The position numbers and the translations under genes are program-made. A DNA stretch of 59,996 nucleotides, filler included, from Hausera hauseri (taxonomy: Eukaryota): assembly GCA_046269625.1 (NCBI GenBank). It is 11 parts of 11 records of this genome, joined end to end, with 100 filler letters (N's around TTAATTAATTAA, not from the genome) between each part and the next. Parts side by side here need not be neighbours in the genome. Positions count along the whole stretch, not along the records: positions 11,511 to 16,510 come from JBJURY010365594.1; 10 more parts are not named here. One strand, 5' to 3'. Shown here piece after piece: positions 8,411 through 46,549 of this stretch. Under the pieces are notes generated by a model. The model saw only the letters and a list, made by a program, of their open reading frames with translations. It was not told the origin of the DNA and made no database searches. The stretch's first letter is position 1, and every line of letters begins with the position of its first letter.

Positions 8411-8539
8411 TGGTCTGGTAATTATGGACGTGGCTTTTGTCCTATTGTCCTGACTCTGACTTGTTTTTTTATTATTAGAACGCAGATGGTATCGTTTATC
8501 TGGCTTTATGTTTTCAGACTCGTTGTATTAATGATTTCT

Positions 8540-10400
8540 TTACCATTCTTGTTAATGTAAACCGTAGTAGGTGTCGTTCTGGTAATCTCGTACGGTCCTC
8601 TCCCCGTACGCGTAAGTTTTAACGATGTCTGTTTGGCTACGGGATAATGCACATAACCCAATTCCCAGTTTCTAGATCGTGCGGTTTCGCTTTCTTGTCG
8701 TATTGCTTCTTAAATTGTTCTTCGTATTCTACGGACAACGTTTTAGCCATTTCCAAACATTTTTGTAATTCGGTTTGTAGAACTTCTGCAACATTTGGTT
8801 CTGTCTTCAGGATTTGCTTGTTACGGAATCATCCTTAAGTCTGTAGGCAATGTTGCTTCTCGTCCATACATCATAAAGAATGGCGTAAATCTTCTTGCAA
8901 AATGTGTTGTCGTATTGATGGCGAATTGCGTGCCTTCTAAAAACTCATCCCAATCCTTTGGATCTTTTGACACTAATGTAGATAATATTCGTATAATAGT
9001 GGCGTTCATACGTTCGACCATTCCGTTACATTGAGGATGATAAGCTGTCGTAGTTAATCTCAATTTCGAACATTTTAGTTATTTTGTCGAATAACTCACT
9101 AGTAAAATTTCGTCCTCGATCAGTTAATATCTGATCAGGCGGTCCGTATCTGCAAATGATCCTCCTCACTACTGCTTCTGTTAATGTTTCTGCATTTTGA
9201 TCGTATAATGCTATTAACTCCACAAAATGAGTTATCCTCATCTTCTATTTCTACCTGCCAATATCCGGATTATAAGTCCAGTGGTAAACCATTTTGCTCC
9301 TGAGAGTCTGTCTAGAGCTTCTTTTACCGACGGTAGGGGTGATGAATCCTTCATCATAACAGTATTTAGCGCTCTGTAATCAATATATAATTGATGTTTT
9401 GTGGTACCCTTTTTGACCATAAGAATGGGTGAATGCCAAGATCTATAACTGGGTCTAATTATGCCAGCTTTAAGCATTCGTTCTACTTGCTTAGCTATCT
9501 CGGGTCTTAAGGAATGTGGCGGTTTTGGCATTTTTTATTACTCAAGGTCAATTTCGTCACTGGAACCAGGCTTTTTCTTAAGTGTTATTGTTAGCCTTAA
9601 CGCTTTTGCTCTGCCACTATCTTCGTCCTCAGCAATTATTGCTTTATAAAGGCATAATAATTCATAAAATCGACAATAAGCTTCTGGTGAGAACTTGGTT
9701 TCTACGTGAGGTGAGAACACGGCATATTTATATGGTTTCTCTTCGACCCTTATTGCTGATACCTTGTAAGTGTGATCCAAGGTAGTATTAGCGTATATTT
9801 TAACTGGAATTTGCTCGTTATTAACTATTCTGACGGGTACATGACCAGACGCTACCCGGGCTAGTATAATACTCAATAACACTCAATATTTAACGTTTCT
9901 TTTTGTTCGAAATATACTGGTAGATCGTCGTCTTGGCGGATTTGTGCAAATATTAACATTTCTGTTCTAGGTGTAATATTTTCATCGACTGGGATCCATA
10001 CTCTCCAAGTTCTCTATTAATTTTTGTTCCTTTTATCGGCCCAGACTCAATTAGCTTCGAGGTAAGTCTACTGCTACATTTGATAGACGTCTTAATACAT
10101 CGCATCCCAATACTACGTCGTCCGTTAGATTCTCCATTATGGAAAACTGCTGCAAAGTTTGTCCAATTATTTCAATATTAGAGTTACATTTGAATTTCAG
10201 TCTTGATTCTTATCCGAAGGCTCCTATACTTCTGGGATCGGTTGCTAGCGGTGGTCGCAGTCGGCGTCGTAGTGAATTGGGTATCAATCCGTGTTTTATA
10301 AATGATTTCTCTAATCCGGTATCTATTAACGCATATACTTCCCAATCGTCGATGTTAATTTTAGCAAAGGGTCTGCCTTCTATAATCATGGGATATTAAC
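8540..10400 (-). pseudogene. pol: Gypsy pol with an internal RT/RNase H deletion
   Basis: Protease EVYALIDTG (about 10315-10342). RT start IDYRALN...SGYWQVEIEE jumps near 9240 into integrase TDRGRNF, YHPQCNGMVERMN and a GPY motif. Confidence 0.9.
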
Positions 10401-10680
10401 GGCAGATATCTTAAGTCCATTTATATTAATTTCTGGTACGTTACCGCTATCTTAGTCTATCTGTCTTAATTCACCAGTTGGGTATAATCCATTATTTGCA
10501 ACTTTCGTCGTCCGGTTCGTGCGTATTGATTAATGGCTCTCGGTTATTAGGATTGTAAAAAGATTGGATTTGCGGATTATAACAAACTGCCAATCTGGTC
10601 TGTTTTGTTGGATCCTTGGGGAGTATATCACCCTGTGATCGTCAACCGATCGACGGCACGGTCCTGCCTTGTCTATAGTT

Positions 10681-11320
10681 TCATACATTTTTCGTAAGAG
10701 CTTTGTCTAATTGTCTAAAAGCTTTAATTTCTTTCGGTCTGTAAATTCCGTTGCTCGCGGTGTCAGCTAATTTATCATTTCTTATACCTTTTACCAAGTT
10801 CGTTCCAGTTAGTTTACTCGATGCGGCTGTTTTATCTCCATTTGGCAAACTTACCCAATCGGTCTCACTTCTTCTAAACATGGATTCTACTAGTCCTGAT
10901 TTACATTCCTTCAAAATCGTCGGTTGCGTAACTCCGGTGACTCGTCCCTAAAATGTCTTCTTTCATCGGAATTATGGGTGAAGCTAGTTGTGGATTGACA
11001 CATATTAAAGCTAATTTGGTTCTCATAATTTTCGTGTCCAACTTACAATAATTCTTGATCATTTTGTAGTATAGTTCTGCTATTTCGGTTTGTCCCTTAT
11101 AGTAAGAGTAATCGTCTCTATTTTTCAAGTAATCTGTCCTCACGACTTGCGTTTCCAACGGGAAGGTGGTTATTGTGGCTTCTGCCACAAAAATACTTCG
11201 TAGTTGGTGGCGTACATCACTAAGTTACATCGAGAGAGAATCTGCTTCTTAATGAAATTCAATCCATGATCGTCTGAAATTAATATTGTTGGTGTGTAGT
11301 GTTCGGCTACGTCTTTCCTT
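10681..11320 (-). pseudogene. env: env-like (class III / chuvirus-G-like) glycoprotein fragment
   Basis: KNRDDYSYYKGQTEIAELYYKMIKNYCKLDTKIMRTKLAL aligns with DNKIEFIYHFQQENIYAMYREIILNDCKLNKEIIRNRIYL of the env at 16248+. Both also share TPTI and TNYE segments. Confidence 0.7.
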
Positions 11321-12420
11321 GATCTGGTATTCGTAAGTAGTAAGAAGGGAGGACTTCTCCCCAAACCCCCCCCACATGGAAGGAAGGAAGCCAATAGGAG
11401 TAGAGGACCANNNNNNNNNNNNNNNNNNNNNNNNNNNNNNNNNNNNNNNNNNNNTTAATTAATTAANNNNNNNNNNNNNNNNNNNNNNNNNNNNNNNNNN
11501 NNNNNNNNNNATTGTCGTGATACTCTTTACTCAGACTTTTAGGTCAATTTTTGCTGTATATTTTCTTGATAACGCTCCATGTTCATCATACCAAATGACA
11601 TACCTATTTTGGATACAGATATATTGACATTGTTTGAAACTAAGTTATTACAGAGGCACGAAGAACAATACCATAAACTCAATTTATTTTCTATTTCAGA
11701 ATTTTTTAAAGATATCAATTCTTTCATCATGATTTTCAGGGTTTTTACACTTGTACGTTATTGTCTTTTTAGACCGCTGATGAGAACCGTGTCATTCAAT
11801 CACATGTTAATTCTACATACACAAGTCTATACTTTGTACCTGTCTAATCATTCATTAATTTCACCTTCATACTTTGTGACTCATGTTCATTTAATTACAT
11901 CTCAATGTCACATACCTTCTTATACTGATTTCATACGCATGACACACCAATTCTTATAATCAACATGATAAACGTGAAAAAAAAGGAAAAATAGTCTGAT
12001 ATGTACAATCTATATATTCACACAACCTATACTTCTATACACACATTTATACATACTATATACATTCCCCTTCTTTATATTTCTCATGTTCTCCGGATTA
12101 CCCAACTAGACAGTCGGGTCCCAACAACTACTGTATCCTTCATTTGTGACAATAATTATAACGAACTACCTTATGTTAAAAATGATCGACGTATGTAAGT
12201 ATGGTTTTGTTCATGTTTATGTTTTATGATTTTGTTCCTTTTTATTGATCGTGTTTGTATGATTAAATATTTCTGTTGTTAGTTTATCATCCTTTGATAT
12301 TGATTAGTTGTAGAAGAGTGATTTGATTAAGTAAGGTTATATATTGTAATATAGAAAGTAATAATAAATTTCAGGGCCTTATTTGGTATACCGTCCCTTC
12401 TGGACGGTTGTCTAAAATCG

Positions 12421-12638
12421 AATAAATAAGGGGGAGTAACGTCAGTGTACCTCCTGAATAAACTCACTCACTAAGCCTAATTAAACAAAGTAAAATTCAA
12501 ACATCGACAAGCCTAGAGGTTGCTGATTATCCTTATAAAGTAAGTTAAGCTTGAGACAGGGAGAGAACTCAAGCTTCTGAATAGAGAGTATAAGTTTAAG
12601 GTTGAAAGACCAAGAAATCTTAACCTCTAAACTTATCA
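12421..12638 (+). repeat. putative LTR with possible upstream polypurine tract
   Basis: Ends ...TTATCA one base before a PBS. Contains AATAAA. Purine run AAGGGGGAG at about 12428-12436. The 5' boundary is uncertain. Confidence 0.5.
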
Positions 12639-12639
12639 C

Positions 12640-12656
12640 TGGTGCCCCGAGTGAGG
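12640..12656 (+). promoter_or_regulatory. primer-binding site, elongator tRNA-Met
   Basis: TGGTGCCCCGAGTGAGG, 16/17 match to the complement of the animal elongator tRNA-Met 3' end (TGGTGCCCCGTGTGAGG). Lies just upstream of gag. Confidence 0.8.
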
Positions 12657-12756: not shown

Positions 12757-13996
12757 TTGGTTGAACCAAGCACGAATATAGAAAGAAACCCAATGTCTAG
12801 CTCCGGAATAGGAACTGACTCAAGCACAACTGGTACGATGGTCCTACCGATGGATAAGTTTGAAGGCAAACCGGACCAAGATTATAGCGAATTTCTGATG
12901 CAATACCAAATGTATTCGCAGAGTTTTGCGTGGTCAGATGAGCTCAGGATGCAACGTCTTCCCTTACATCTTAAAGGAATAGGACTTAGTGCTTATGCCC
13001 AGCTTACGGATGATGATAAAGCTGATTGGGCTAGCCTTAAGGACACCCTGGAAGAAAGACTCTTAGCAGACCCATCAGGAAAAGGTCGAATTGGAGAATT
13101 CAAAAGGCGACGTCAGAGAAAAGGTGAAAGCGTGCAGGAGTATGCATGTGCCCTTCAGAAGTTGGCCCAGAGAGCCTGTGCAGATGATGACATAAGAGAA
13201 GACGCCCTCCTGGTTTAGTTTTGTTATGGAGTTACCAAGGAAATACAGAATTATATTATTGTGGCAGATCCGGACATATAAAAATGCTGTCAGTAAGGCC
13301 AGGAAGATAGAATTAAATTACGAAAGATTAGAAAATACCAAAAAGCCTCCTAAAACTGATGACAAAAAGATAAAAAATTTTTAATCAAAGAAAAATTTGC
13401 AAAAACCATTTTACAAAATGCAGAATCAAATGGGACAACCTCAGAAGAAGGTAACATGGCAACAAAAACAACCTCAAAAATCTGCAATGAAAAAACCAGT
13501 GGTTAACCAGAACGGACAACCATTATGTTTCGCATGTCAAAAATATGAACATATGGCTCGTACCTGCTCTAATGAAGGACAATCAAGTCAGAAGAAAAAG
13601 AACGTTGATATAGTAGGTAATATATCCGATACAGATAATGAACACGAAACCACGGATACAGAGCCCGTAGAAACGATTGAAAAGCTACAACAAAAGATCA
13701 GATTCAAATTGAAAAAAAGTAAAACGAATACGATAAAAGAAGAAGATAAGATAGCTGAATTAAAACAGCTATACCTTGAATTAAAAGAGCAACAAATCTG
13801 TGAGAGAAGGCAGAAAATGAACGATGAAAGTTCAGTCATTGCTCCCATTCGTAGACCCAAAAAGACTCCTGCATCAGAATCGGATGTTGAAAAGAAAAGG
13901 GTCAAGAAGAAGGACAAACCTTTGATACAAGAAGAAGAATTGAAGACTCCGGAATTTAACTTACTTTCGGGAAGTGAAAGCGAAAATGTGAGTTAA
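12757..13996 (+). pseudogene. gag: Gypsy gag (capsid, CCHC knuckle, charged extension)
   Basis: KFEGKPDQDYSEFL, LPLHLKG, RRQRKGESVQEYA, knuckle CFACQKYEHMARTC. One stop and a frameshift. Confidence 0.9.
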
Positions 13997-14781
13997 GTGA
14001 AGAAAGTAAACCGAAGGAGAAGATAAAAAGAATAAGAAAAAAGAAAATTAAGGAAAAGTCTCCAAGTTATGAGTCTTCATCTGTCGATTTAGATCAAGAT
14101 GGCGTAGAAATAGTTCGGAAAATATCTAGCTATGCCAACCAAGAACTAATCGATGGCACTCGGTTTAGGCAAGATCTGTCCATGTTGCTATTGCCAACTA
14201 TTAGCCATCAACAATTTGCTGATTTACTGGATTTGCTGTTCATGTATGCTGCGGGTACAAGCCCATATCAGAATATTATACGATACATAATCTATCGATA
14301 TGCGGACAGGGTGAGGACAGTTGGAGAAAACCCTGAAGTAGTAGTTACTCTCCAACAATATAATCAAGAATTCCATGCTCTTAGAATGAAATCGTCGGAT
14401 ACAATAGCTATGTTAAAACATAAAATTGACGAAATAAGCCAGCCTCAAGGAGAATTGGAGTTACGCTTCTATGGACGAACATTGATGGACTACGAAACTT
14501 TATATGAAGAAGGTATTTGGGAAAATCGATATAATCCAGTGTGTATTACTTATAAACAGCCTGAACAATAGATAATCGATGAAATTATCACTGATGTCAG
14601 GCCAAAGGAAACACAAGAGGCCAAACATCAATATCAGGCTCAACCAGTAGAAGTCGGAGGAAATATACCTATATCAGAACAAATGCAAACGAACGAAAGA
14701 AACCGTGGTAGACCAAAAGGAACGACGAAACTTTATCAGTTGAAAGACAGGAAAGCTAGAGGTGATGAAGTTGTTTGAAGA

Positions 14782-15318
14782 TTGTTAATGACAGAAGAAG
14801 AATATGACATAGATAATGTATCATTGGCAACATTACTAAAAACCTTGTTAGCAAGAATGCATAATGCATTCATTGAGTTTAATACCAATTTACAAATACC
14901 GGATTCATTAATGCAAAATATTAGGAATGAAATTGCAAAGATTAGTGAACAATTTGCAGATATCCCTACAGACGAAAGGATAAATGAAATACAGGAAAGA
15001 GATATACTATCCAGAATGATGGGAACAGGAGTATCCCGAAATAAAATCGTGACGGCAATATCCTATCTCTTGTATAAGATAATAGTGATGAACGGTGTAA
15101 ATCCGAATCAAGAAGAGATAGAGAGAAATATAGAAATAGCTACAAGAGCCTTGAAAGCCAATGTTGAAGGATGGGTAAAATGCAGAGGTGGATGGATCAC
15201 TAGTCTGGTCCATACGACAATACATGAATCGGCGCCAACTACACAACAGCGAATGGAATATCTTCCACCTCAGCAATCAGAGAGACAACGAAACCAACAA
15301 CCGGATTTCGATTTATCT
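14782..15318 (+). CDS. Bcl-2-like domain (BH1/BH2-like motifs) in a retroelement polyprotein
   Basis: RMMGTGVSRNKIVTAISY resembles BH1 (ELFRDGVNWGRIVAFF). VEGWVKCRGGW resembles BH2 (WIxxxGGW). Spacing and helical pattern fit. Confidence 0.62.
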
Positions 15319-16510
15319 TGGTTAACTAAGGTTATACCCATACTCCTTCTGTTTAGCCTGATGCCAAAGGCTCTCTCGATTATTGCCTATGACTGTAGTC
15401 AGGCTAAGGAGGGTCCAATATACTCTTTATTAGACCTAGAGAAATGTCCTTTTGCCAATCCAGCCTCACTAACTACCATATCGAAAAAACAGTACTACGT
15501 CTATCAAGAGTCGGAGTTTGTGAAAACTAAAGTAAAAGAATGCTTTGTTCGAAAGAATCATTTTCACTTCATATGCGGATATTAGTATCGAAACTCAGTA
15601 ATAGTTGAACCAACTGCTCCATTCGAACCACTTCCTATAAGTAAACGGATGAGCATAGAGGCTTTTGTAAAAAAACAGATTAATATTGGCAATATTAGAT
15701 TGAAAGCTCAGAAAGGAAAAATTATCAATAAAAAAATTGTTGTGGCTGGAACAATTGATAAAACAGGATATTGTAAGGGTGAATCTTACAATATAAATGT
15801 TAAAATTTTGGATAATATAGTGGCTACTGAAGATTATCAGGTTGAGTTGAGAGAATATGATGCCCTCTTTGAGTTATCTTTAGGAAAAATGATGACATTC
15901 CCTGAATGTGATTACTATAATAAAGAATGCGACACTGGTGAATCAATTATGTCTTATGAAGTTGATAGGGATCAGTGTCAATTAGCCTTATTAAAAATAG
16001 GAAAGTTCAACGAAACAAAAGGATGAATCTACAAAGAAGAAATATTTAAGAGTATACTAGACCGAGCATCGGATATGATTGAGACTCCTACTATAGTATA
16101 TTTAGCAAACTCTCAAGACGGAATGAGATTTAAATTAGAAAGTGATACTAGGAAATGTGACATACAGTATTTCGAACAAATTATGAAGGGATATTCTTAT
16201 CCACAACAGAAATAACCAAAGCTAAAAGGAAAATCGATAAATCGAAAGTGAAACCCCATCTTTATTTTGATAATAAGATTGAGTTTATTTACCACTTCCA
16301 ACAAGAAAACATTTATGCTATGTATCGAGAGATAATATTAAACGACTGTAAGTTGAACAAAGAGATAATTAGGAACCGAATATATCTATCAGCGATAACG
16401 GACGGAATAATAAAAGATCCAGCTGAATCTCCTGATGCAGAAGGAAAGTTCGCTCGAACGATGGGTGAGACACTCGTAACTTTTGAATGCACAAAAGTAG
16501 CTGTCAAATT
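15319..16510 (+). pseudogene. env: env-like glycoprotein (class III / chuvirus-G-like), truncated by the contig end
   Basis: Hydrophobic signal WLTKVIPILLLFSLMPKALS, then IIAYDC...YSLLDLEKC. Cys-rich ectodomain, GYCKG and GETLVTFECTKVAV. Stops at 15583 and 16024 plus a frameshift. Confidence 0.78.
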
Positions 16511-16818
16511 NNNNNNNNNNNNNNNNNNNNNNNNNNNNNNNNNNNNNNNNNNNNTTAATTAATTAANNNNNNNNNNNNNNNNNNNNNNNNNNNNNNNNNN
16601 NNNNNNNNNNAACTTCCTGGTGAACTGGATGGATCTCAACAGAGCCTGGATCAGTTGTCAGGAGGATCTCTGTGGTTCTGGTTCTGACCTGTCCGGCTCT
16701 CTGGACCAGAACATTGATCGGATCAGAACCATTTTCCCAATGTCAGTCAGAAGGCTCACACTGAGCATGCTCAGACAACGGGTCGTGGTTCTGTTCTGAC
16801 GTGTGGCTCCCCCTGCAG

Positions 16819-16957
16819 GCCGGAGAGCCCATCACCTCCACCACTCAGGTTCTGACCGTGTCGGGTCTGGTTCCGTCGTCCAGCTACAACTGCAGCGTGA
16901 CGAGCTTCAGCTACAGCTCAGCCAGCCGGCCGGCCCGCATCACCGTCACCACCGCAG
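16819..16957 (+). CDS. ptpro: single exon of teleost-like receptor tyrosine phosphatase O (FN3 repeat)
   Basis: CAG|...|GTAG splice sites. VLTVSGLVPSSSYNCSVTSFSYSS matches the PTPRO YNCSVTSFS motif. GC-rich with GGTTCT-rich flanks, unlike the rest of the window. Confidence 0.75.
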
Positions 16958-17694
16958 GTAGGGGGCGGCCTGGAGTCGGGCCGCAGCACCGCCAGTGGGG
17001 GGCGCTGTGCAAACCTTAAACATGTTTTAACCAGATCAACACAAAGTACTGGGAAAATCTGAAATGTGTGGCGGGCTTTTTGTTCTGCTTTCCTCTGAAT
17101 GCAGTCAGCCAGACGCCTGAGTCTCACTGCAGCGGTTCTGGTTCTGGTCTCAGAGGTTCTGGCTCCTGCACGTTTCAACAACTCAAACTTAAGGCTTTTT
17201 AAGACCAAAACGAATGAAATTTAAGACCTGCACTATTACAATATCACAAATAAACAAATCCTATTAGTTGGCAACAGACGTGAGCCAATGAAGAAGATCA
17301 ACAGTGTCCAGCCAACTGGCAACTTATACACGATGGACATAAAAAGCTAGCTTTAACTTTTAATGTTAGCTTACCTAGTAAACTTTAGCAAGCTTTTCTA
17401 TTAGCAATATGAAAAACTATTATTAGATAGAAAGAGTATATTAGCAGTTAGCTACTATTCAGACCGCAGTGAAGATGCCTGCATGCGACTCAAAGTTTTG
17501 CATAGCAGTAAAATCCCTTGAGAAAAAAGAGAAAACTATGTAGAACATATGATAAGTATTCCTGCCACAACACAGTTTGAGTAACCATAATCCATCTGAT
17601 ATATTTTTATACAAGGGAAACACTTAAAGGACTAACACTTAACAGGAGCCAAAAGGCTAACATGATTTTTCTTTAAGAAACATCAGTAAACCAT

Positions 17695-17964
17695 ATGATA
17701 CGTCTAACATTGGACGTAGTTCTAATTTGTCAGACGATAATTTTGGATGAATTCGACGAACCGATAACGGGTGAAATTGATATCAACACAGTGCCGAGAG
17801 ATAGAATCAAATGTAAACTGTTGTATGCCAGTAGTGTGAATCCCGGTGGTTGGGCACCGGCATCGGTACTTCGTACGGTTGCTCGTCGGGAATATCCCCG
17901 ATTTATTAAACGTTTCAGTCAGTATGTCATCGAAAACACAATGGATTGTTTACCAAAATTTTGA
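17695..17964 (+). CDS. CERT1: C-terminal START-domain fragment of ceramide transfer protein
   Basis: [27 protein letters not shown] is diagnostic of the CERT/COL4A3BP C-terminus. Natural stop present, 5' part missing. Confidence 0.88.
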
Positions 17965-18419
17965 TTTATTTTCCGATTTTTTTATTATTCAAAACCATAA
18001 TGCAATTTTATACGTGTTTTTTGGAATTGAATAAATACAACGTGATAGAGCGACTAACAAAATATATATATCTTTATTCAAGAAAACATGTCCAGATGTA
18101 TCCTACCTTTTCTATTGTGTGTATCAAATTTTTGTTTATTTTATTATTATTATTACCGATTATCATTGTTGAGTCTCCTTTACGATTTATATTTACTCAA
18201 GACGATCTATGTACACTGTTTATTTATATTGCGATACATTGATGCTGTTGTACTTTTAACAAATCGAAAAAGAGATGAAACATTTTGCCCATGTATTTCT
18301 CTAGCTCTCTTTTATAAAAGCAAAGTTAAATCTTCAATGTTACTGCTTACAACGGATGTGATCTTTGACCAATATATTTTGTACAGTTTATCTTTGAGAT
18401 TGTTCGGACTTATTTCATT

Positions 18420-19643
18420 ACAGAACTTTCTCGACTTACAGCAGAAGGTCCATTGGACAACATCGCCCATTATTTAAATGCCGTAATAATTTCTCTTCAT
18501 TGTTCCATGGGAATAGCGGTAAATATCAGTAGAGATGCCCGAGAACTATCTGTGAAACCAATGCAAAAATTTATTACTGAATCTATTGAATCATCGGATA
18601 GTCTCATGCAAGCAACCTTGGATGTGTATCCAGCTTCTCATCCAGTCACAGTTAATGTTGACGAATCCAAGAATCGAACTGAACAAATTCGCCAAGCCAT
18701 GGGTGAAACTCAAGCGGATGAAGTTAAGAATAGATTCAATAACCTTTTAAAATAGCTCCATGTCCAAGAGGAAGAAAAGCGGCAGGCGAAATTCAAAAAA
18801 TTACGTGATACGTATGCTAAACTGGAAGAGCAACTTCAGAAAACGATGATTCCCATTAAAGAATACGCGAATTTGTTCAGCAATAAAAGCAGCGAACTTG
18901 GGAGCCAGATGAGATCAAAAATGTTCAGTGGATGTGGTAGTATAGAACAGATGAAAATAAAAATATGTCGACAATCACTCGGGGCTGTTTGTACTCTCAT
19001 AGACAAACTGGCCAGTATGGGGTTCAATTTTGGAATAAAACAATTATGTCTAAATAATATTGAAAATGATGGTGCGTGTAATATCAAAAAAGCCGAAGAA
19101 CGAGCTCAGAAATGTTCCAATGAACGGGAATCAGGAAATGCTCCTGATGGATTTGGTGCTATGCATCGAGGAACTAAGGAAGGGCTGAAGGCCATGAAAG
19201 AGATATTTGGCTTTAATGTCACTTGGAAATTTAAACGATTGGCTTTTCAAGTAAGTGGTAATTCCCTTTTACATGGAACAGCAACATTAGCTTTAATCAT
19301 TGGTGATGCTATACAGGTCTTTGTAAATTTGATCATTTTGCTATTCGTTGGCCTTAAACTTATTTTGATGCTCGTCATATTCAAGTCTTTTAAGTATTGC
19401 AAAAAGTACATGGAAGATTTAGATCATGATAATATCTACGTCACAGTATATTTTGAGTATATTGACGAACAGAGAAAACGCGCTAACAGAAGCAGTCTTC
19501 TTCCATTAAAAAGTTTTGAAGTCAAGAAATTAATATACAACAATAAATTTTATACGGGATCAGAATTGAAAAAAACTTGTAAAGGGTGTTATAAAAATTA
19601 CTACAGTCGTTCTATCATTGACAATTTCTTTTATTATGTGTGA
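18420..19643 (+). pseudogene. DCST1: DC-STAMP-domain protein (DCST1/sneaky-like), intronless and partial
   Basis: GPLDNIAHYLNAVIISLHC and DHDNIYVTVYFEYIDEQRKRANRSSLLPLK motifs. One in-frame TAG at 18753 between two same-frame ORFs. Confidence 0.78.
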
Positions 19644-21558: not shown

Positions 21559-23966
21559 GATGAAGGAGAAGTATACATCGAACCAAATGTAAATTTTATG
21601 GATAAAAGTGAATTATGGATTGCTCATGCAATCGATAATATTCGAGAAAAGCAAGTAATTACTCGAATAACTAATGTTTCAAATAAATCGAAATTAATAA
21701 GAAAAGGCACAATAATTGCCTACACATATCCTATAAAAGATGTAGGAAATAAGGCAACAGAAGCCATTATCTCCATCGTACAAGAATTGTCCGAATTCGT
21801 GGAAAAAGAACAACACAGGTCACGAAAAGAAAGCGGGATGCGGTTAGAAAATGAATGAATAAATAAATTGAAAAGCCATCTTAATAAAAATAAGAAAATA
21901 ACAAAACTCGTTAAGACTCCTGTTAATTGGAATGATTATGATTTGTTTGGAAGGGACAGTATATTAACGGATATATAAAAAGAAGGTGTAATAAAAATAT
22001 TACACCAATATGAAAACGTATTCGCTGTAGATGAATATGATATGGGCGTAATACCGGTTATTAAGCATGAAATCAAATTAAAGCAAGGAATGGAGACCCC
22101 CATTAAAAAGAGATCGTATAGGCTCAATTATGATAAAAGAGAAAAGGCAAAAGAAATAATAGCTGAAATGAAACAACACAATATAATCCGACCCAGTAAT
22201 TCGCCATGGGCAGCCCCAATTGTAATAGTGCAAAAGAAAGACGGATCTATTAGGATGTGCGTAGACTATCGTGCTTTGAATGAAGTAACAGTGGATAACA
22301 CTTATCCGTTACCTAGGATCGACGAAATACTGGACAGATTAAAAGATAAAATGTTGTTTACCACGTTAGATCTACAAAAAGGTTTTTGGAAAATAGAGGT
22401 ACAGGAAGAGGACAAACAGAAAACAGCTTTTGTAACAGCAGATGGACATTACGAATTTAATAGGATGGTATTTGGGATGAAAAATGCTCCAGCAACATTT
22501 CAAACCGCCATGGATATAATTACAATGGGCGCTCCACACATAATGTGTTATGCAAATGATGTAATAATTGCGTCAACTGATTATAAACAACATAAAGAAC
22601 ACCTTAAGGATATGTTAGAGAGATGCGCGCTTCTAGGAATAAAGATTAGTTTAAAAAATGTTGTTTTGCCCCAACTAAAGTAGACTTCTTAGGCCACACG
22701 GTAAGTCGAGAAGGTATTAGTCCTCAAATTGAAAAAATAAATAAAATCCAAGATTTTCCAGTCCCAAAGACGGTCAAGGGAGTTCGAAAGTTTCTTGGCC
22801 TCACAGGCTATTACCGAAAATTTGTTAAAAACTATCAACAGATAGCTTCACCGTTGCATGCATTACTACAAGAAAATTCTAAACTTGTTTGGACTCAAGA
22901 GTGTCAAAAGGCTTACCAACAATTAAAAGATAACTTATTAGCTCCACCTATATTAGCATATCCAGATATGTCAAGGCCATATTTTTTAGCAACGGATGCC
23001 AGCAAAGTCGGAATCGGAGTTGTTTTATCACAAAAGGATGACCAAGGACAAGAACATCCGATATCGTTTGGAGGGAGAAAATTAAGAAAACATGAAAGGA
23101 ACTATTCCACAATTGAACGTGAATTACTCGCAATAGTTTATGCGTTAGAACAGTATGGCCAATATTTATCAGAAACCAAACCTATTATTATTTATACTGA
23201 TCATAAGCCATTACAGTGGTTGAAAAATCATAAAAATCCGAATAGTCGACTAATGAAGTGGGCTATGCTGCTTCAGCCATATGATCTGAAGTTTGAATAT
23301 AAAATGGGAAAAGCGAATGCTAATGCAGACTATATGTCAAGAATACCAGAAGATACAGATCAAACCGGAAAAGAATCCATAGATAAACCAGGTGTTATAG
23401 CAGCAATATGGAGCATCACAGGACAAGAGAGATCATTATTACAAAAGCAGCAAAATGATGAACAAATTAAACAAATCAGAGAATTTTTGAAAAGAAAAGT
23501 AATACCGAATGACACAGATCTTTACGCCCATTTAAAAAGTTTTGCTGAACATTATGAAATAAAGGATGATGTATTATATTATAACCATAAAGGAAAACTA
23601 GTTGTAGTTGTTCCGCAAAAAGATATAAAGTTGTTACTGACGCAATATCATGATGGTATGATGGGAGGACACCAGTCAGTAAAAAGAACCTTAGGAAGAT
23701 TGAAAAGAAAATATTATTGGCATACTATGACTAAAGATGTTCAGGATTGGTGTAAAAGTTGCCCAATTTGCGCCACTAGGAGGAATACTGGTTTAAAGAT
23801 TAAAGTTCCTCTTAAACCAATAGAATGTCCACCAGCCCCAATGGAATTCTCGGCTATGGACATTCTAGGACCGTTACCGATGACAATAAATGGAAACAAA
23901 TACATGTTAGTGTTTGTCGATCTATTCTCCAGATGGCCAGTTGTGATACCGATAACAAATCAGAAA
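21559..23966 (+). mobile_element. pol: Gypsy pol (RT, RNase H, N-terminal integrase)
   Basis: RMCVDYRALN, LDLQKGF, YAND (catalytic D to N), ATDAS, TDHKPL, HHCC zinc finger, MDILGPLP. One frameshift in an A-run near 22655. Confidence 0.95.
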
Positions 23967-26063
23967 GAAAATTATCAATGGACTAGTATTTCTGGAACAT
24001 CATTAATAGACAAAAGAGTATCGTATGTAATGCTAACTGGAGTCGAAAATAAAGGCAAACCAAAGCCGCCTTTTATCAAAGAAGCCGGAATAACTGTTCT
24101 TTGTAGCAATAAAATTAACTCTGTCAAATCAGAATTCGATTTGAATTTCCAATGTCAATTTGTTGAAGATGGAAAATCATCTAATTCCGATGAGAAATAC
24201 ATTGCAAACGTTGTTCGATCGACCAATTATAAAGTTGACACAGCTGCATTTATCCATTGCGATCCGTTGTGGATTTCTAGATTATCGAGATTCAACGATC
24301 CATCAGGAAAATGTAAATTACAACTAATTAAAGACAACGGAGCGATGACGAATAAATCTATCGATATCTGTTCAGCGTACGAGAAATGCGTTGGAGGATT
24401 TTCGGTGGATTTAAATACGAATTTGCAGGATATTGACGTGATATTCGGATTACCATTTGCCAACAAGACGAAAGTATTACGACAGGCTCAGTACACAGGA
24501 ATATCGCAAGCTAACCAGCAAGTACCGATCGGAGAATTGGGAACGGTGCATAATTTCGGTTATTCCGTTGCATTCGGCAGAACCGGATCGATGTTTGTTG
24601 CGTCACCAGTGTCGGCGAAAAATACGCCATATATTCAACAAATTAACGGGAAGGAATACTACGCAAATAGTATCATAAAGGATCAATATATTGGTGGTTT
24701 CGGTACGAGTTTGGATACGGTGGAAATTCGAAAGGACTTCTACGGTGCAATAATCGGTGCGCCATATTTAAATCGACAAACTCTGCCGAATGCTGGCGGC
24801 GTTTTTCTCGCCTGTGAAGGTCACGAAATTGACGTGGTATTCGGCGAGAACGGATACGATTATTTCGGCTACATCGTTGCGCGATTGGGGGACATAAATG
24901 ACGATGGATCCGATGAATTTGCGGTCAGTGCACCGCGTCTCCAGTTGGATTCGCCGGGGAGAATTTACGTGTACAGCACGTTGGGTAATTGTAAAATAAA
25001 CAAAATCCCGTTGCAAATTATCCAAAGTGACATTGCCGGATTTGGTATGGCAATATCGAGGAACTTTGATGTTAATTTCAATGGTTGGCCGGATTTCTTC
25101 GTATCCGGTTTGCAGATGAAAGACGTGCGGTTGTTTTCTATGCCGAAACAAGAAACGGTAACGTGTCGATTTGTTGCGCCGAAATCTGTCGATTTGTCAA
25201 CGTTCGGTGGGTTTAGAATTGCGGTGATGTTCGATCGTAGAATAAATTACGATAATTACACATTCCAAACTGCTGTCGACATGCTCCACAAACAAGAACC
25301 GAGATTTAAATTAGTCGAGAGTGTATGGAAAGGATCATCGTATTCCATTGAAATTCAGGCATTGGATGACATTCTCGGAATGGATTTCAAATCGACACCG
25401 TTCAAATTGGCATTGCGTGGCATCCGATCGTGTAAAGTACATGGCACGGGTTGTTTTCTAGTCCAGTCGCCGAACATTCGATGGAAAAACTGCGAGGAAA
25501 TCATCAAAATTCCCCAGGGATCATGTGTCGATTGTAAGTCGGATTTGAAACTCGTTGCCAAACCCGATCCAAAAGGATCCGATATCTTAATTGGAAACCA
25601 CGAAAATTACGATCGACAAATTGAATTGACCATTTCCAATCTGGGTCCGCAACAAATCCAGCGAGTTTATCTGTCGATTAATCCAACACCCAATTTGTCC
25701 GTTTTGAAAACGGTTTTGAACGTTTCGTCTAGTGAAATCTCTCAAACCGAAGGGAAATTTAAAATCGTTATTAAAGAAGCTCTTGAGTCGTGGTTGAGTA
25801 ATTCTGATGATGTTAAAGCAATTGTGCGATTGTCATTTATTCCCAATTCGGAATTAACGAGTTCGGCATCGATAACCTTTCAGATTTGGGGTATAAACGA
25901 CGACATGAATTTATCAAATAACAATCATACTATTGATTATAACGTTCTGTTTCGTCCAAATGTTACGTTTTCGTCGAAAATCACGGAAAAACCCATCGTT
26001 TATAATATGTGGTCAGTCATGTGCATAACCAAAATTTATACAGGATGGAATATGCTATTGTGA
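22854..26063 (+). CDS. 1069-aa in-frame fusion ORF: RNase H and partial integrase joined to integrin alpha ectodomain
   Basis: Open frame across a junction near 23967. Confidence 0.6.
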   Translation: MHALLQENSKLVWTQECQKAYQQLKDNLLAPPILAYPDMSRPYFLATDASKVGIGVVLSQKDDQGQEHPISFGGRKLRKHERNYSTIERELLAIVYALEQYGQYLSETKPIIIYTDHKPLQWLKNHKNPNSRLMKWAMLLQPYDLKFEYKMGKANANADYMSRIPEDTDQTGKESIDKPGVIAAIWSITGQERSLLQKQQNDEQIKQIREFLKRKVIPNDTDLYAHLKSFAEHYEIKDDVLYYNHKGKLVVVVPQKDIKLLLTQYHDGMMGGHQSVKRTLGRLKRKYYWHTMTKDVQDWCKSCPICATRRNTGLKIKVPLKPIECPPAPMEFSAMDILGPLPMTINGNKYMLVFVDLFSRWPVVIPITNQKENYQWTSISGTSLIDKRVSYVMLTGVENKGKPKPPFIKEAGITVLCSNKINSVKSEFDLNFQCQFVEDGKSSNSDEKYIANVVRSTNYKVDTAAFIHCDPLWISRLSRFNDPSGKCKLQLIKDNGAMTNKSIDICSAYEKCVGGFSVDLNTNLQDIDVIFGLPFANKTKVLRQAQYTGISQANQQVPIGELGTVHNFGYSVAFGRTGSMFVASPVSAKNTPYIQQINGKEYYANSIIKDQYIGGFGTSLDTVEIRKDFYGAIIGAPYLNRQTLPNAGGVFLACEGHEIDVVFGENGYDYFGYIVARLGDINDDGSDEFAVSAPRLQLDSPGRIYVYSTLGNCKINKIPLQIIQSDIAGFGMAISRNFDVNFNGWPDFFVSGLQMKDVRLFSMPKQETVTCRFVAPKSVDLSTFGGFRIAVMFDRRINYDNYTFQTAVDMLHKQEPRFKLVESVWKGSSYSIEIQALDDILGMDFKSTPFKLALRGIRSCKVHGTGCFLVQSPNIRWKNCEEIIKIPQGSCVDCKSDLKLVAKPDPKGSDILIGNHENYDRQIELTISNLGPQQIQRVYLSINPTPNLSVLKTVLNVSSSEISQTEGKFKIVIKEALESWLSNSDDVKAIVRLSFIPNSELTSSASITFQIWGINDDMNLSNNNHTIDYNVLFRPNVTFSSKITEKPIVYNMWSVMCITKIYTGWNMLL
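23967..26063 (+). CDS. integrin alpha subunit fragment (beta-propeller, thigh, calf-1)
   Basis: FG-GAP repeats NFGYSV, IIGAPY, YFGYIVARLGDINDDGSDEFAVSAP, FGMAISRNFDVNFNGWPDFFVSG, and genu-like CVDCKSDLKL. No signal peptide, TM or GFFKR. Confidence 0.9.
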   Translation, partial: ENYQWTSISGTSLIDKRVSYVMLTGVENKGKPKPPFIKEAGITVLCSNKINSVKSEFDLNFQCQFVEDGKSSNSDEKYIANVVRSTNYKVDTAAFIHCDPLWISRLSRFNDPSGKCKLQLIKDNGAMTNKSIDICSAYEKCVGGFSVDLNTNLQDIDVIFGLPFANKTKVLRQAQYTGISQANQQVPIGELGTVHNFGYSVAFGRTGSMFVASPVSAKNTPYIQQINGKEYYANSIIKDQYIGGFGTSLDTVEIRKDFYGAIIGAPYLNRQTLPNAGGVFLACEGHEIDVVFGENGYDYFGYIVARLGDINDDGSDEFAVSAPRLQLDSPGRIYVYSTLGNCKINKIPLQIIQSDIAGFGMAISRNFDVNFNGWPDFFVSGLQMKDVRLFSMPKQETVTCRFVAPKSVDLSTFGGFRIAVMFDRRINYDNYTFQTAVDMLHKQEPRFKLVESVWKGSSYSIEIQALDDILGMDFKSTPFKLALRGIRSCKVHGTGCFLVQSPNIRWKNCEEIIKIPQGSCVDCKSDLKLVAKPDPKGSDILIGNHENYDRQIELTISNLGPQQIQRVYLSINPTPNLSVLKTVLNVSSSEISQTEGKFKIVIKEALESWLSNSDDVKAIVRLSFIPNSELTSSASITFQIWGINDDMNLSNNNHTIDYNVLFRPNVTFSSKITEKPIVYNMWSVMCITKIYTGWNMLL

Positions 26064-26369: not shown

Positions 26370-29067
26370 TGGCCGTAGAAATACCCTTAACTTTCATCCT
26401 TGAAGCAGCCGATTTTGTTTGTGATGGCGTTTCTGTACAATGGATGATTCTGTGGGTAATTGGACTTGTCCAGTAATCCGTCTGCCATAATTTGCCACAG
26501 TAGTTGTTAGGGATTGACGTTTTCCAGTTCCAAGAAAAAACTATCTGTGTCACCGGAAATTATATTGATCTTGCTTCCGCCGCTACCGAACATTTGTCGG
26601 TAACATACCAAATAGCGATACTGCAGCTCATACATCTGCAAGTTGCTCAGATCCAATAGCACTTGTCCTATATAACTTGGCCGGTCCAGTACGACTTCTT
26701 CACTGTTTAAAGGCACGGCAACCAATCCATCGGCAATGCGCATTGATCGCTTGAACTGCGCCTTACTCGTATACGTAACCAACCGCTTTTCGCTATTGTA
26801 TAAGCGTACATTGAGCCACTTTTCCAGATTCTCTACTGCTTTTCCATAGAGAGAATTGTTTTTCAGCTTGTAATAGTCTTTTCAAACTTCGTACAAGCTT
26901 CAGCTCGTTTTTCCGAATTCCGACTGATATACGGCTCGAATATCGGAGCCTGTGCGAATCGGATTGTGCGATGCAGCTGTGTGACGCGTACACCCAACTG
27001 TATGTAAAATTGCAACAGATGCCAATGAATTATGTAGTTTTGTTTACGTTCATGCGTCATAAGCAGCTTTTTTAACTTCAAGCCCGGTGGATATTGGTTG
27101 ATTGGTGCGACCGGCAGTTCATTCAGAAAGTCATGCAACTCATCTGGTATCAAGAGATCGACTTCCATCAGGTATCCTAATGAGCTGCTTTCTGCTGTTG
27201 TCATATCTGCCCTCGACAGATTTTCCAGTAATGTGTCCAGGTCCGGTTTGTCAACTACCCATTCCAATAAACCGTACGGCAAGGGTTGCGAAAGCGCCCA
27301 GCCGTACAGGTTATTAATGTTGATATACAAGAGTAATGTGGTATAATTACTGGTTACATGGTGCTTGTTGACAAATTTCATGCCGCCACGAATACCAAAA
27401 TCAAACATTCGGTACATTTTCGGGTCTTGCAATAGCTCTATATCCCGTTCCAGTGACATCAGAGCTGATGCCCAGCTCATTCCTGGTATTGAGTAAAAGT
27501 TGAGTGGCTCCAGCCTATCTTCTGCCAACACGTTAGCTCGAAATGTCTGAAACACATCGGCTAGCAGGTACACATCCAATTTTAGATAATGAAGAATGTA
27601 CTCCAACAGGTTTCTGCAGCTGAGCTTTGCTCAAAACGATTGGGCTTTGTGATATTGTTCTTCTGTGATACCGGGCCATTGCGGTAGTAATTCTTCTGTT
27701 GTCTGAAGCCGCTTGTACGATATCGAAAGTCATACGGGAATATGCCTTTGCTACGTGAAACATGTGCAGGGGAATGAGTCAATGTTAGCGGCACATCTGA
27801 CAAGGCATTTACCAGCTTTGTCAGAGATTCGTTGAGAAATTGCAACGAATCAAGGAAGCGTACCTGAAACCGGCTAATACGAGCAGATGGTGACAGGAAA
27901 TTCTCCATTGTAGTCGGAATTATGGAAAGTTCCCAGTGTGTAAAGCCGTTAATGGCCCATTTGAGAATATGGTGACAGTCATAACCTTGAAAATGATGAA
28001 AGATCACCGGCAGGAATGGTCGCACTCGCTTTGCTAAATCGCATAAATTGCATGCTGCTCCCAAGTATCGACCAGTGAAATAGTCATGATCCGGTACAAG
28101 CCATTCCTGTTCATCAAACGGTATTATTTTGTGGCACAGATAGCATTCATCGGTGGCAGCAAAAAGCAGCGGTTGATATTCATATGTCAAAATCAATGGC
28201 TTATTGCAATTGTTGCAATACCACGGCGCGACTTCCGCTTCCACTATGGTTTGAAACTACTGCAGGAAATCACTTATACAGTTCCAATCATGGAAAACGT
28301 AATACTGCAGTTGTCCTGCGGCTTTTATTGGTACTAACAACATACCGACGGTAATTGGAACGTGCTTTTGATCGCATACATTGTGCCGTGCTAGAATTGC
28401 TTCGATATTGGCATACACTCCATATGCCGGACTGTCCGTTTTGACCAGTCACTGAATCTCAACTCCATTTTGACTGGCGTAACATACATTGTGGTTCCTG
28501 ATGAAGTTTGTCTGCACAGCGCCAGATGCTTTTCCCATATCTCATTTGACCGGAATTTATGCAGACACACGGGACACCATTTACACCGTATATGCTTTTG
28601 ATGAACTGATCAGGCTCCATGTTCAACAATCTGTTCAAATTGGTCACAGCCGTGTAATGAAACTTTTCTTCATTCTCCAACAGCAACAAATTTACTGGGC
28701 GTCCAATAGGATTTCGACTGCGGAAAATTATGTCCACGTGAGGATTCTTGTAAATTTCCTCATCCACCGGTATCTCTACGATTGTGTTGAACCGGAACAC
28801 GTTGATTACCTGTGTCGGATTACGCCGTTCAAAAGCCGGAATAGTTTTGAGTTTCATCGGCATCCAAAACTCATCGTAGTTCAATTCTAAGAAATACTTA
28901 CGGTACTGCTTTTGACAATTTGCATGATGTCTGGACACTTGATCATATTTTAATATGGCCAGAATGCTGTAAATAAAGCAGTATTCGTCGTTAGTATTTT
29001 TTACATTCACTGTACCGTCAGAGACTGCTTCAAGGAGGCAGGTGTAGGTATGACTGAACGTCCTCAC
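26370..29067 (-). pseudogene. protein-primed DNA polymerase B (Polinton/Maverick-type) with endonuclease VII-like insert
   Basis: NVKNTNDEYCF, CYLC...DHDYFTGRYLGAACNLC, RFLDSLQFL, DVYLLADVF, GIRGG, NNLYGWAL, KLKNNSLYGK, GDTDS. Frameshifted. Confidence 0.92.
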
Positions 29068-29149
29068 ACGTAAATCATGTCACTCGTCTTGGTCAATATA
29101 AAGTTGAAAGTGACAATCTTTACAATTCGTCAACTGTGGGTTCGTGCGT

Positions 29150-35375: not shown

Positions 35376-36900
35376 TCAGTAATGAAGACTACCAGTATGC
35401 TCAGAACGTCTGGCATGTATTCCAATGCAAAACATTAGGGAATATAGCGACACATAACTCCAAACCGATGTACTGCTGCTGACAGATGTTTTTGAGAGTT
35501 TCAGGGATGTTACAATAAAGAGCCATGCATTGGATCCGGCTAATTTCTTTACGGCTCCAGGGATGAGTTGGGCAGTTATGCTGAGATATACTGGTGTTAG
35601 GCTGCAGATTATCAAGGATCATGATATGATCCTTATGATCGAGAAAGGAATTAGAGGCGGAATATGCCAGGCCATTCACCGGTATAGTGAGGCAAATAAC
35701 TAGTATATAGCCCGGTATGATCCATGCAAGGAATCCTCATATATATGAACAACTTGTATGGATATGCAAAGAGCGTCCCATTGCCATATGATAACTTCAA
35801 ATGGGTCGAGAATCCTGGAAACATCCCTATACTGGACCTGGATACCAGTGGAGATACGGGATACATACTGGAGGTAAATAAGGAATATCCGGCTTCTATC
35901 CATACAAGACATCAACAGCTGCCTTTCCTCCCTGAGAGCAGGCTTCCATCCCATGGAAAGCACAGAAAGCTGCTCTGTCATCTGGGTAATAGGGAGAGGT
36001 CTCCAGAAAACAGTTAGACATGGACTTCGTATTACTAAGATTTATAGGGCCCTGCAGTTCAGCCAGTCCATGTGGCTGCAGTCATACATAGATTTCAATA
36101 TAAAGCTGCGGACTAATGCCAAGAACGACTTTGAGAAGGATCAGTTCAAGCTTTGCAACACAGCGTTTTTGGCAAGACTATGGAGAATATCCACATAATG
36201 ATCAACATGAAGCTACTATGTGACTGGAAGCAAGCAAAGAAGCTCATTTACAAACCCAATTTCCACAGCAGCGCCATATATACGGAGAACATGGTAGGAA
36301 TACATATGCTGAAAACAGCATTGGTATTCAACAAGCCCACATATGTGGGTATGGCAATACTGGATCTATCAAAAACTCTAATGTACAGATTCCATTACGA
36401 TATAATGGTCCCTAAGTTCAAATCCATGCATCTGATGTATATCCATACTGATAGCTTCATCTATCAGATCCATACAGAGGACATTTATGAGGACTTTGTC
36501 CAGTTGGCAAAGCATATGCATGCCTCGGACTATCCGAAGGATCATCTTAACTATTCAATTTCTAACAAAAAAATCCTAGGGAAATTCAAGGACGAGGTGA
36601 ATGGGGCAATAATGTCGAGATTTGTGGCTCTCAGATCTAAAATGTATGCCCTAGACGTATGTTGCCAAATAAAGAAGCGAGCAAAATGGGTTAAAAGGGT
36701 TACATTGGCCAAGAAGATCAGTTTTCAAGACTATGTGACAGTTCTGCAGGTGCAGACTCACATTATATCGAAAATTAAAAGATCCAATCTAGGGATCATA
36801 ACATCCAAACTGTTACCTTACAGAAGAAAAGCCTATATTGTATGGACGACAAGAGGCAGATCCTCAGCGATGGAATCCACACATTATCTCACGGGCATAT
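35376..36900 (+). pseudogene. protein-primed DNA polymerase B (Polinton-type), polymerase domain
   Basis: TDVLLLTDVFESFR, GIRGG, NNLYGYA, FGKTMEN, KPTYVGMAILDLSK, HTDS, GKFKDE, LRSKMY. Stops and frameshifts. Confidence 0.93.
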
Positions 36901-37136
36901 GGCATTATTGTAACTATGTACATATTGTTATTCTTTGTTCAATAAATGTTGTATAGAAATATCGTGTTGTCTTCTTGATTAAGTAATGTGGGATTAAGCC
37001 AAGTAAAACTAAGTAACTATTATATAAGTTAAGACCAAGTAAAACATAGATCAATAAAATCAATAAATTTGAATAATTAATACAGTGCGACATTTACTTG
37101 CATTAATCTTTCATTATTTCAAAAAATATTGAAGAC

Positions 37137-42615: not shown

Positions 42616-43018
42616 NNNNNNNNNNNNNNNNNNNNNNNNNNNNNNNNNNNNNNNNNNNNTTAATTAATTAANNNNNNNNNNNNNNNNNNNNNNNNNNNNN
42701 NNNNNNNNNNNNNNNTTCACAGATTTTGATTGTTAGTTTTTTTATATATTACAAGTGCTGCTTACTTCGGCACTTGTGATCCCGATTTGTAATTTTTCTA
42801 TTTTGTATGTTAGAAAATTTGATTTTGGTATATTTTATTTGACCTAATCCGTGATATTAAATTGTGACTTTAAATTTTATGTTATTGTAAGGTGGGACTT
42901 TACAACCAGCTCTATGCGAATTCCTTTTTATTCGTTAATTCCGATCGGGTAAGCTTATATTTGTTTCTGTAGATTTCCAGCTCTTTGTTTAATTCATCTA
43001 GCTCTATTGCTGTCTGCG

Positions 43019-44945: not shown

Positions 44946-44984
44946 GCTTGCCTTGGTAGGTTTGGTAAATGAGACGCTTCGCTG

Positions 44985-46079: not shown

Positions 46080-46434
46080 TTTACGCAGTTCACTTAATTT
46101 AGGTGAAGCTTTGAAATTTATTTCTTGATCTTGGTCTGATAAATTCGTTAGATTTTCGCGTGACTCAGATAAGGTACGCTTTCGTTTGAATTTGTTCTTG
46201 CTTTACTACGGGTTCCTCTTAAGTTTAAATTCTCTTTACCGTTAAGGTTTAAATGTTCAGATTTACTATGTCTGTCAATATTTGTGCTTTAATACCCACT
46301 TAATTAAATACAGGAGCTTATATCCCAAATTTTATACTTTAGTCGATTGAATTAATTGGTGTCGATGCGCTGATCGCGGGTATTTTGCTTTAATTAACTC
46401 TTTGTTGAAGTAATAGTCTAGCAAGGTACAGACT

Positions 46435-46452
46435 GTCCTGCTAGGGTCGCCA
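46435..46452 (-). promoter_or_regulatory. primer-binding site, tRNA-Arg type
   Basis: Minus strand reads ...ATAACA-TT-TGGCGACCCTAGCAGGAC: LTR end CA, a 2-nt spacer, then a TGGCGA-type PBS upstream of gag. Confidence 0.72.
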
Positions 46453-46549
46453 AATGTTATATTTTGGGGAGTTGGCCCTACTTGTCTCTCACTATATAAC
46501 AATAATTATATCAAATTTAAAAAAATATAGCAGGTGCGTTTTACTGTTC

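Follow-up and report, generated by a model that had tools for sequence, protein, structure and literature searches.

A probable Burro-type polyprotein gene of Hausera hauseri with a Bcl-2-like domain ahead of its Env signal

The closest described systems are the planarian Burro/GYPSM1 elements, which are 25-30 kb long with paired LTRs and encode, in one ORF of 4,873 aa, Gag with CCHC knuckles and a Ubi2/SUMO-like region before a BCL2-like motif (PMC6431247). Their Env sits between BCL2 and the protease and matches mononegavirus fusion glycoproteins, and Burro was termed the first case of an in-frame env between gag and pol (PMC6431247). BURRO1 has been shown to be abundant and active (PMC8532177), and Burro1 is reported as part of an expansion among planarians of both land and freshwater (PMC13465017). 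A BIR/RING cargo of Burro1, B-IAP, is reported second-hand to protect planarian stem cells (PMC13465017). The same glycoprotein class has been treated in mosquito elements (PMC7642597). In the Platyhelminthes, the C1a GAG-ENV-POL errantiviruses (Smed_errantivirus_1-6) likewise carry Env before Pol, with an Env of the same HSV/gB-type family (PMC13524379); neither "Bcl" nor "Burro" occurs in the main text of that publication.

In the stretch of Hausera hauseri DNA analysed here (the window, 59,996 nucleotides from assembly GCA_046269625.1), the initial annotation had recognized a Bcl-2-like domain joined to an Env signal and had named Burro as a precedent to be checked. The precedent exists: Ubi/SUMO-BCL2-Env-protease in one ORF has been published (PMC6431247), so the layout as such is not new. 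The annotated segment (14782-16510) very probably comes from the central part of a disrupted Burro-type Ty3/gypsy polyprotein gene that holds a true Bcl-2-derived domain. Burro/GYPSM1 and the window family share the order Gag, CCHC, Ubi/SUMO-like, BCL2-like, Env in one ORF, as seen in P0002, the best of the relatives (protein records, numbered here with a P). The window Env, like that of Burro, is of the mononegavirus-like (HSV gB-type) class by Pfam PF24664, both elements are high copy, and decayed Burro copies with stops and frameshifts occur in Dugesia japonica (PMC6431247), as does decay in the window copy. In contrast, Burro has two or three CCHC knuckles and the window element one; the MATH, BIR and ankyrin regions of Burro are absent from the 5-kb contig at 11511-16510 from which the window element is known, Burro having been compared by its description rather than by direct alignment; and the distance from Gag to the start of Env in P0002, about 810 aa, is shorter than in Burro. 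As for the errantiviruses, the Env part of relative P0013 agrees by eye almost letter for letter with the Smed_errantivirus_1 row (PMC13524379). Over 142 columns, the window Env shares 35% identity with the P0013 Env, and the window element therefore belongs to a family distinct from Smed_errantivirus_1.

Setting, architecture and decay of the element

The window consists of 11 short contigs with N/linker spacers between them, and the finding is confined to the contig at 11511-16510, which carries the 5' portion of the element and is bounded by N runs at 11411-11510 and 16511-16610. On the plus strand at 12634-12656, a putative 3' end of a 5' LTR (...TATCA at 12638) is followed by a primer-binding-site-like TGG... 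from 12640. This reading makes the segment the probable 3' terminus of the 5' LTR, the second LTR being absent from the contig. The element is repetitive. On the 5-kb contig, 21,396 contigs from run X1, which may itself be the source of the window, can be aligned; their summed depth, not to be read as a copy number, is about 10 across the first 330 bases, climbs from about 12350 and lies between thousands and tens of thousands along most of the element. Related loci were found neither among viral contigs nor among JGI metagenome contigs.

The element is read on the plus strand from a Gag capsid-like region (12793-13272; Pfam Retrotrans_gag, E 7e-4), which is 80% identical to aa 3-164 of P0002 and is interrupted by an in-frame stop at 13216 and a frameshift near 13273. 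A CCHC zinc knuckle follows (13526-13570; Pfam zf-CCHC, E 0.011), whose counterpart in P0002 scores above the Pfam cut-off (E 2.5e-4). Downstream lie a small domain predicted to be helical, of unassigned type (14110-14350; 58/81 residues identical to P0002; no significant match in the Pfam scan), and, C-terminal to it, a ubiquitin/SUMO-like domain (UBL) at 14351-14560 (51/70 residues identical to P0002; Pfam ubiquitin, E 2.9e-4, under the cut-off), then a stop at 14569. Two candidate assignments were rejected here: a death-domain or DED identity for 14110-14350, for which Pfam support is absent, and a role of the UBL as a deubiquitinase cut site, the Gly-Gly end being absent by eye in both the window and P0002. 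Among 35 relatives, phmmer matched the helical-UBL module to P0002 only, and stretches resembling it can be discerned by eye in P0005, P0022 and P0025; we do not claim family-wide conservation. The linker beyond carries an RGRP basic motif (14698-14721), which by eye also precedes the Env signal in P0005, P0010, P0012 and P0035, all relatives free of the Bcl-2-like domain.

After an in-frame stop at 14776-14778 comes the Bcl-2-like helical domain (14824-15210; aa 13-141 from the ATG at 14788, with a confident core at aa 41-140), then a Q/P-rich linker of low model confidence (15211-15315; pLDDT below 50 for aa 142-176) and an internal Env signal sequence (15316-15378). Hydropathy and the -1/-3 pattern predict signal-peptidase cleavage after 15378. 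The N-terminal part of a class III (HSV gB/chuvirus-like) Env ectodomain occupies 15379-16510, where PF24664, a viral fusion glycoprotein model, matches three consecutive pieces (E 1.5e-6, 9.4e-6 and 4.2e-9, one of them above the cut-off). This Env is broken by stops at 15583 and 16024, a frameshift near 16160 and the contig end at 16510.

P0002 (82% identity, 1130 aa) encodes the same succession, Gag-CCHC-helical/UBL-Bcl-2-signal-Env, in a single open frame. Compared with it, the window copy has six stops (13216, 13382, 14569, 14776, 15583 and 16024) and about three frame changes (near 13273, 13980-14060 and 16160). Judged by its sequence, the window copy is a dead element, and with these lesions it cannot carry out the processing proposed below. 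The lesions also bear on the single Bcl-2-Env ORF described in the initial annotation. It is indeed one open frame (14779-15585), but its start is the stop at 14776, a lesion within a Gag-to-Env frame. Since P0002 is open across this position and lacks a Met where the window has ATG 14788, the ORF is a piece of a polyprotein gene cut out by decay.

The part of the gene beyond the contig can be read from relatives. In seven of them (P0003, P0005, P0010, P0012, P0022, P0029 and P0035) Env is followed in frame by an aspartic protease, an arrangement that they share with Burro/GYPSM1 (PMC6431247), and P0012, P0022 and P0035 continue from the protease into RT, RNase H and integrase. In P0003, one ORF combines the Bcl-2-like domain with Env and protease. 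Where measured, Env identity for these relatives is 29-38%, and the window contig stops within Env. Several relatives have additional peculiarities: P0035, P0005 and P0003 show three to six aspartic-protease motifs per Env-before-Pol ORF, with ankyrin and C2H2 also present in P0035, and two are chimeras in which a host gene is joined to the signal and N-terminal part of Env, with MRP-L47 lying upstream of them in P0013 and a FAD-oxidase domain downstream in P0006.

Further retroelement and host-like sequences lie on other parts of the window. A second decayed element (8530-11340, minus strand), in the order Env, protease, RT, integrase, gave zero blastn nucleotide matches to the element described here. 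At 42716-46836 (-), a related Gag-CCHC (28% identical to the P0002 Gag) precedes an open frame of 290 aa (43022-43891) that has no Pfam match. At 21979-26063 (+), a gypsy RT-RNase H-partial integrase continues in the same frame into an intronless integrin-alpha-like sequence of about 690 aa (FG-GAP, E 0.002), as if a pol gene had captured a host mRNA. By eye, 26866-29079 (-) and 36135-36953 (+) resemble DNA polymerase B fragments of the Polinton/adintovirus type. The segment at 16611-19640 joins a piece that resembles a fibronectin-III exon (Pfam fn3, E 0.012), is richer in GC and looks fish-like, to START-domain and DC-STAMP-like fragments, and is possibly host, food or chimeric sequence.

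At 47250-49935 (+), axonemal dynein heavy chain 10 and Mon2 are represented by intronless, frame-broken fragments that abut each other beside a gypsy element; they are likely retrocopies or assembly chimeras. The top named matches of the dynein fragment are Lingula (66%) and Paragonimus (62%). In a FastTree phylogeny of this fragment and 24 of its 120 matches, among which named triclads and monogeneans are absent, it groups with one further record as sister to Paragonimus + Schistocephalus and outside them (support 0.985); the Schistosoma row is a long branch positioned away from these two. This placement makes a flatworm host likely.

Identity and conservation of the Bcl-2-like domain

The frame 14779-15585 contains all the motifs named in the initial annotation: a BH3-like segment, IAKISEQF (14932-14955), a BH1-like motif, GVSRNKIVTAISY (15028-15066), a BH2-like motif, WVKCRGGW (15172-15195), the Q/P linker, a hydrophobic stretch (15328-15363) and, in the same frame as the domain, AYDC (15385-15396). 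The Pfam Bcl-2 model PF00452 aligns to the window over positions 4-100 of 100 (E 0.0011, 19.9-20.4 bits) and, of 27 relatives scanned, independently matches four (E 7.7e-5 to 2.1e-3), which are 23-30% identical to the window domain; all of these scores, at most 23.6 bits among the relatives, lie under the cut-off of 31.4 bits. A profile made from the element alone (the window plus nine relatives, cellular Bcl-2 excluded) retrieved, with the E limit set at 1, 108 sequences from the PDB, with Bcl-xL as the best (E 1.9e-4), and the 60 best rows of the 108 were all Bcl-2 family members. A second profile, of eight distant relatives without the window and P0002, scored the window domain at 42.6 bits, while 500 shuffles gave 9.2 or less, a comparison that is partly circular because these relatives were found using the window as query. 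A single-sequence phmmer search of the PDB returned zero Bcl-2 chains. Word-indexed homologue searches gave none at near length and none among proteins of 3437-5000 aa, the latter a weak search, its range being derived from long alignment rows.

The BH motifs differ in how well they are kept. The BH2-like pattern occurs once in the 119,988 six-frame residues of the window, and across rows its Trp, Gly and Trp are present in 9/10, 10/10 and 9/10. At the BH1 NWGR position, the basic residue is retained (Lys or Arg in 9/9 rows) but Trp and Gly are found in none of the nine, so that the BH1-like motif of the initial annotation stands at its place in altered form. IAKISEQF lies in the expected helix yet is not conserved among relatives, and its reading as a BH3 motif is not upheld. 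In Bcl-2 proteins, the BH1 Gly and Arg are important for BH3 binding. The domain is Bcl-2-like by sequence, as had been proposed, with a BH1 groove that is non-canonical on the same evidence. It is very probably Bcl-2-derived, and diverged, and BH3 binding is only putative given the lost Trp-Gly.

In the AlphaFold model built from 10 sequences (a single-sequence model, of mean pLDDT 44.5, was discarded), pLDDT is 62-84 over aa 41-140 and below 50 for helix 1, and helices are predicted at aa 39-55, 67-77, 84-102, 108-132 and 136-141. Foldseek found no PDB match at E 0.001 or better; its best E was 0.032, and all 45 rows among the matches listed were Bcl-2 family members. With VIA, Bcl-2-family chains made up 21 of 50 rows, none reaching Z 8, and the top row, Cre recombinase (Z 7.6), was tied with KSHV Bcl-2 (Z 7.3, rmsd 4.2, 105 aligned residues). 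The viral structure library likewise gave no Foldseek match at E 0.001 or better; six rows had a probability of at least 0.6, four of them named Bcl-2 proteins and two without a name. Identity in the structure alignments with Bcl-2 proteins was 10-18%. The fold searches based on this model are consistent with Bcl-2 but weak. Bcl-2 chains prevail among the structural matches, but with E values of 0.03 or worse and Z of at most 7.3. The domain resembles Bcl-xL, KSHV Bcl-2, BHRF1, canarypox CNP058 and A179L in its helix layout and the BH2 W-x5-GW, and shares with Bcl-2 proteins the basic residue at the BH1 Arg position and a C-terminal hydrophobic segment. Unlike them, it lacks the NWGR Trp-Gly and is internal to a polyprotein, and its hydrophobic segment is a predicted cleavable Env signal.

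A full HMMER search with the window element returned 33 relatives. In nine of them the Bcl-2-like domain stands directly before the Env signal, with no intervening domain in any, so the in-frame fusion to a fusion-glycoprotein Env reported in the initial annotation is kept beyond the window; the domain scores of these nine are circular, the same nine having built the profile. Eight have at least 140 residues upstream of Env without a Bcl-2-like domain (one of them the host-gene chimera P0013), and the other 16 are too short upstream of Env to judge. Since at least seven of the 33 have a long upstream part and no such domain, it is dispensable for the family. In an Env tree of 25 of 35 relatives, with the shortest omitted and deep nodes weak, the Bcl-2-bearing rows do not fall into a single clade, and P0008, which has the domain, is sister to four domain-free rows (support 0.966), a pattern that suggests loss of the domain.

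Between the window and P0002, the Bcl-2-like core is the most conserved segment (92/100 residues identical), as compared with 214/257 (83%) in Env, 15/22 in the signal and 20/40 in the linker region 15196-15315, that is, 92% in the core and 50% in the linker. Sister contigs show 147 variable sites, and 30 of the 40 best-supported fall at third codon positions. Of the 18 listed sites that fall within the core, 15 are at the third position and none at the second (P 2e-5 against one third); the bias extends to the linker (6/8 sites) and the signal (7/8 sites). As the sites were chosen by support and are non-independent, these counts are a signature and not an estimate of dN/dS. The sister copies therefore carry a signature of purifying selection on the core, under which, as far as the rows indicate, the loss of the BH1 Trp-Gly is consistent among relatives. 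The sister copies proposed as a check in the initial annotation retain both the core and, in the nine protein records, the fusion. No listed contig covers the complete BH2-to-Env junction, and the fusion in sister copies therefore rests on the protein records.

The Env signal and the fate of the upstream product

In most rows, with or without Bcl-2, the hydrophobic core of the signal ends 7-11 residues before YDC/FDC. With the cut placed three residues before the Tyr, a small residue stands at -1 in 29 of 32 family rows and at -3 in 28 of 32, compared with 5-19 of 32 at other upstream positions (our own count; 3 of 35 rows could not be placed). In the window this pattern gives ALS|IIAYDC, the cleavage site named in the initial annotation, which agrees with the family as a prediction from sequence pattern. 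Since the signal occurs in relatives that are free of Bcl-2, the hydrophobic stretch belongs to the Env family, and on these comparisons it is the family's own Env signal rather than a captured Bcl-2 tail. Ten long relatives have no hydrophobic 19-residue segment upstream of the signal, and nine of the ten have a single hydrophobic region about 530-570 residues past the Env start; where protease motifs are present, this region precedes the first of them. This topology fits a polyprotein whose Gag-to-Bcl-2 part would be cytosolic, its Env luminal, and its protease and Pol cytosolic again.

Translation of an intact member could then proceed as follows. The internal signal would thread Env into the ER lumen cotranslationally, signal peptidase would cleave at ALS|IIAYDC, and the signal would remain on the upstream product, holding the Bcl-2-like domain at the cytosolic face of the ER, while the Env transmembrane segment would bring protease and Pol back into the cytosol. 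The initial annotation had signal peptidase releasing a membrane-anchored vBcl-2. This has to be amended, as the domain is internal to the polyprotein: signal peptidase by itself would leave a Gag-UBL-Bcl-2-anchor product of about 810 aa (P0002 numbering). Because the domain lies inside Gag-...-Env(-protease-Pol), a further protease cut is needed for a small anchored Bcl-2, and the element's aspartic protease may provide it by removing Gag and UBL to give Bcl-2-linker-anchor. Such a protein would protect the particle-producing cell. The domain itself may have been gained by template-switching capture of a host mRNA.

A published analogue for a signal serving as an anchor is the rubella capsid, in which the E2 signal peptide is kept as the C-terminus and is required for mitochondrial targeting of the capsid (PMC3040668). 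The rubella capsid resembles the proposed product in that a glycoprotein signal stays as the C-terminal anchor of the upstream polyprotein part, but it has no homology to the window domain and no Bcl-2 fold. It is anti-apoptotic, and the signal peptide is dispensable for its block of apoptosis (PMC3040668).

The separate parts of this proposal differ in strength. Intact members quite probably retain the Env signal as an anchor on the upstream product; an anti-apoptotic action of the domain is somewhat favoured; and the whole, a Burro-type polyprotein whose retained Env signal anchors a Bcl-2-like domain that dampens host-cell death, we consider slightly better than an even chance. We think it unlikely that the domain, Bcl-2-derived and membrane-tethered as above, no longer has a role in apoptosis and serves as an interaction scaffold, for instance against innate-immune signalling, as poxvirus A46/A52/B14/K7 do, or connects the capsid precursor to the membrane in a matrix-like way.

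It is also rather improbable that the hydrophobic stretch acts as an Env signal alone, the domain being freed in soluble form, either through a cut in the Q/P linker by the element protease or through signal peptide peptidase, so that the tail anchor would be transient and the adjacency of domain and signal a by-product of the capture site. Relatives without Bcl-2 have the same signal at an equal distance from YDC, which favours this reading, as do the long, variable linker of low model confidence and the short core of the signal, which contains Pro and Ser (the best 12-residue stretch scores 2.42 and 19-residue stretches only 1.65). The distance from BH2 to the Env start, 50-76 residues where measured, is also unlike that of a typical tail anchor. 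However, the domain immediately precedes the signal in all nine relatives that have it, and the third-position bias reaches into linker and signal alike.

That internal initiation or a spliced RNA yields Bcl-2-Env as a separate protein is very improbable. The ATG at 14788 does follow a stop in the window, and the records of P0003 and P0008 start at or within the domain, but gene callers begin proteins after lesions in decayed copies, P0002 reads through the stop position and has no Met there, 1,227 residues of open frame lie ahead of the domain in P0025, and Burro is reported as a single 4,873-aa ORF (PMC6431247). Least credible, and barely so, is an unrelated helical bundle with W-x5-GW by chance, for which sub-threshold Pfam scores and the level ranking of recombinase core-binding domains and Bcl-2 proteins by VIA might speak, but against which Pfam, the element-only profile and Foldseek converge on the Bcl-2 family for the window and four relatives, with a BCL2-like motif published at the same Burro position (PMC6431247).

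The reading that we prefer remains the retained Env signal as an anchor for a Bcl-2-like domain that would dampen cell death. None of the literature consulted names the Env signal as a membrane anchor for the BCL2-like domain, and "signal peptide" is absent from the text of PMC6431247; a Dev Cell 2026 study of Burro1 and Grohme et al. (2018) may cover it. A fuller picture is offered tentatively and is doubtful as a whole: Burro-type elements would process a genuine viral-style Bcl-2 out of their polyprotein with the Env signal doubling as its tail anchor, so that the anti-death protein would arise at the ER in a one-to-one ratio to capsid and envelope; it would act through a BH1 groove that has lost the NWGR Trp-Gly in many lineages, and the host possibly lies outside the planarian families reported for Burro1. 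The layout is already published and the window copy itself contributes little. What the family adds is comparative evidence on the Burro BCL2-like motif, which the publications consulted only annotate, and, beside the reported B-IAP cargo, a concrete test case for a retroelement that may control host-cell death through a signal-anchored Bcl-2 protein.
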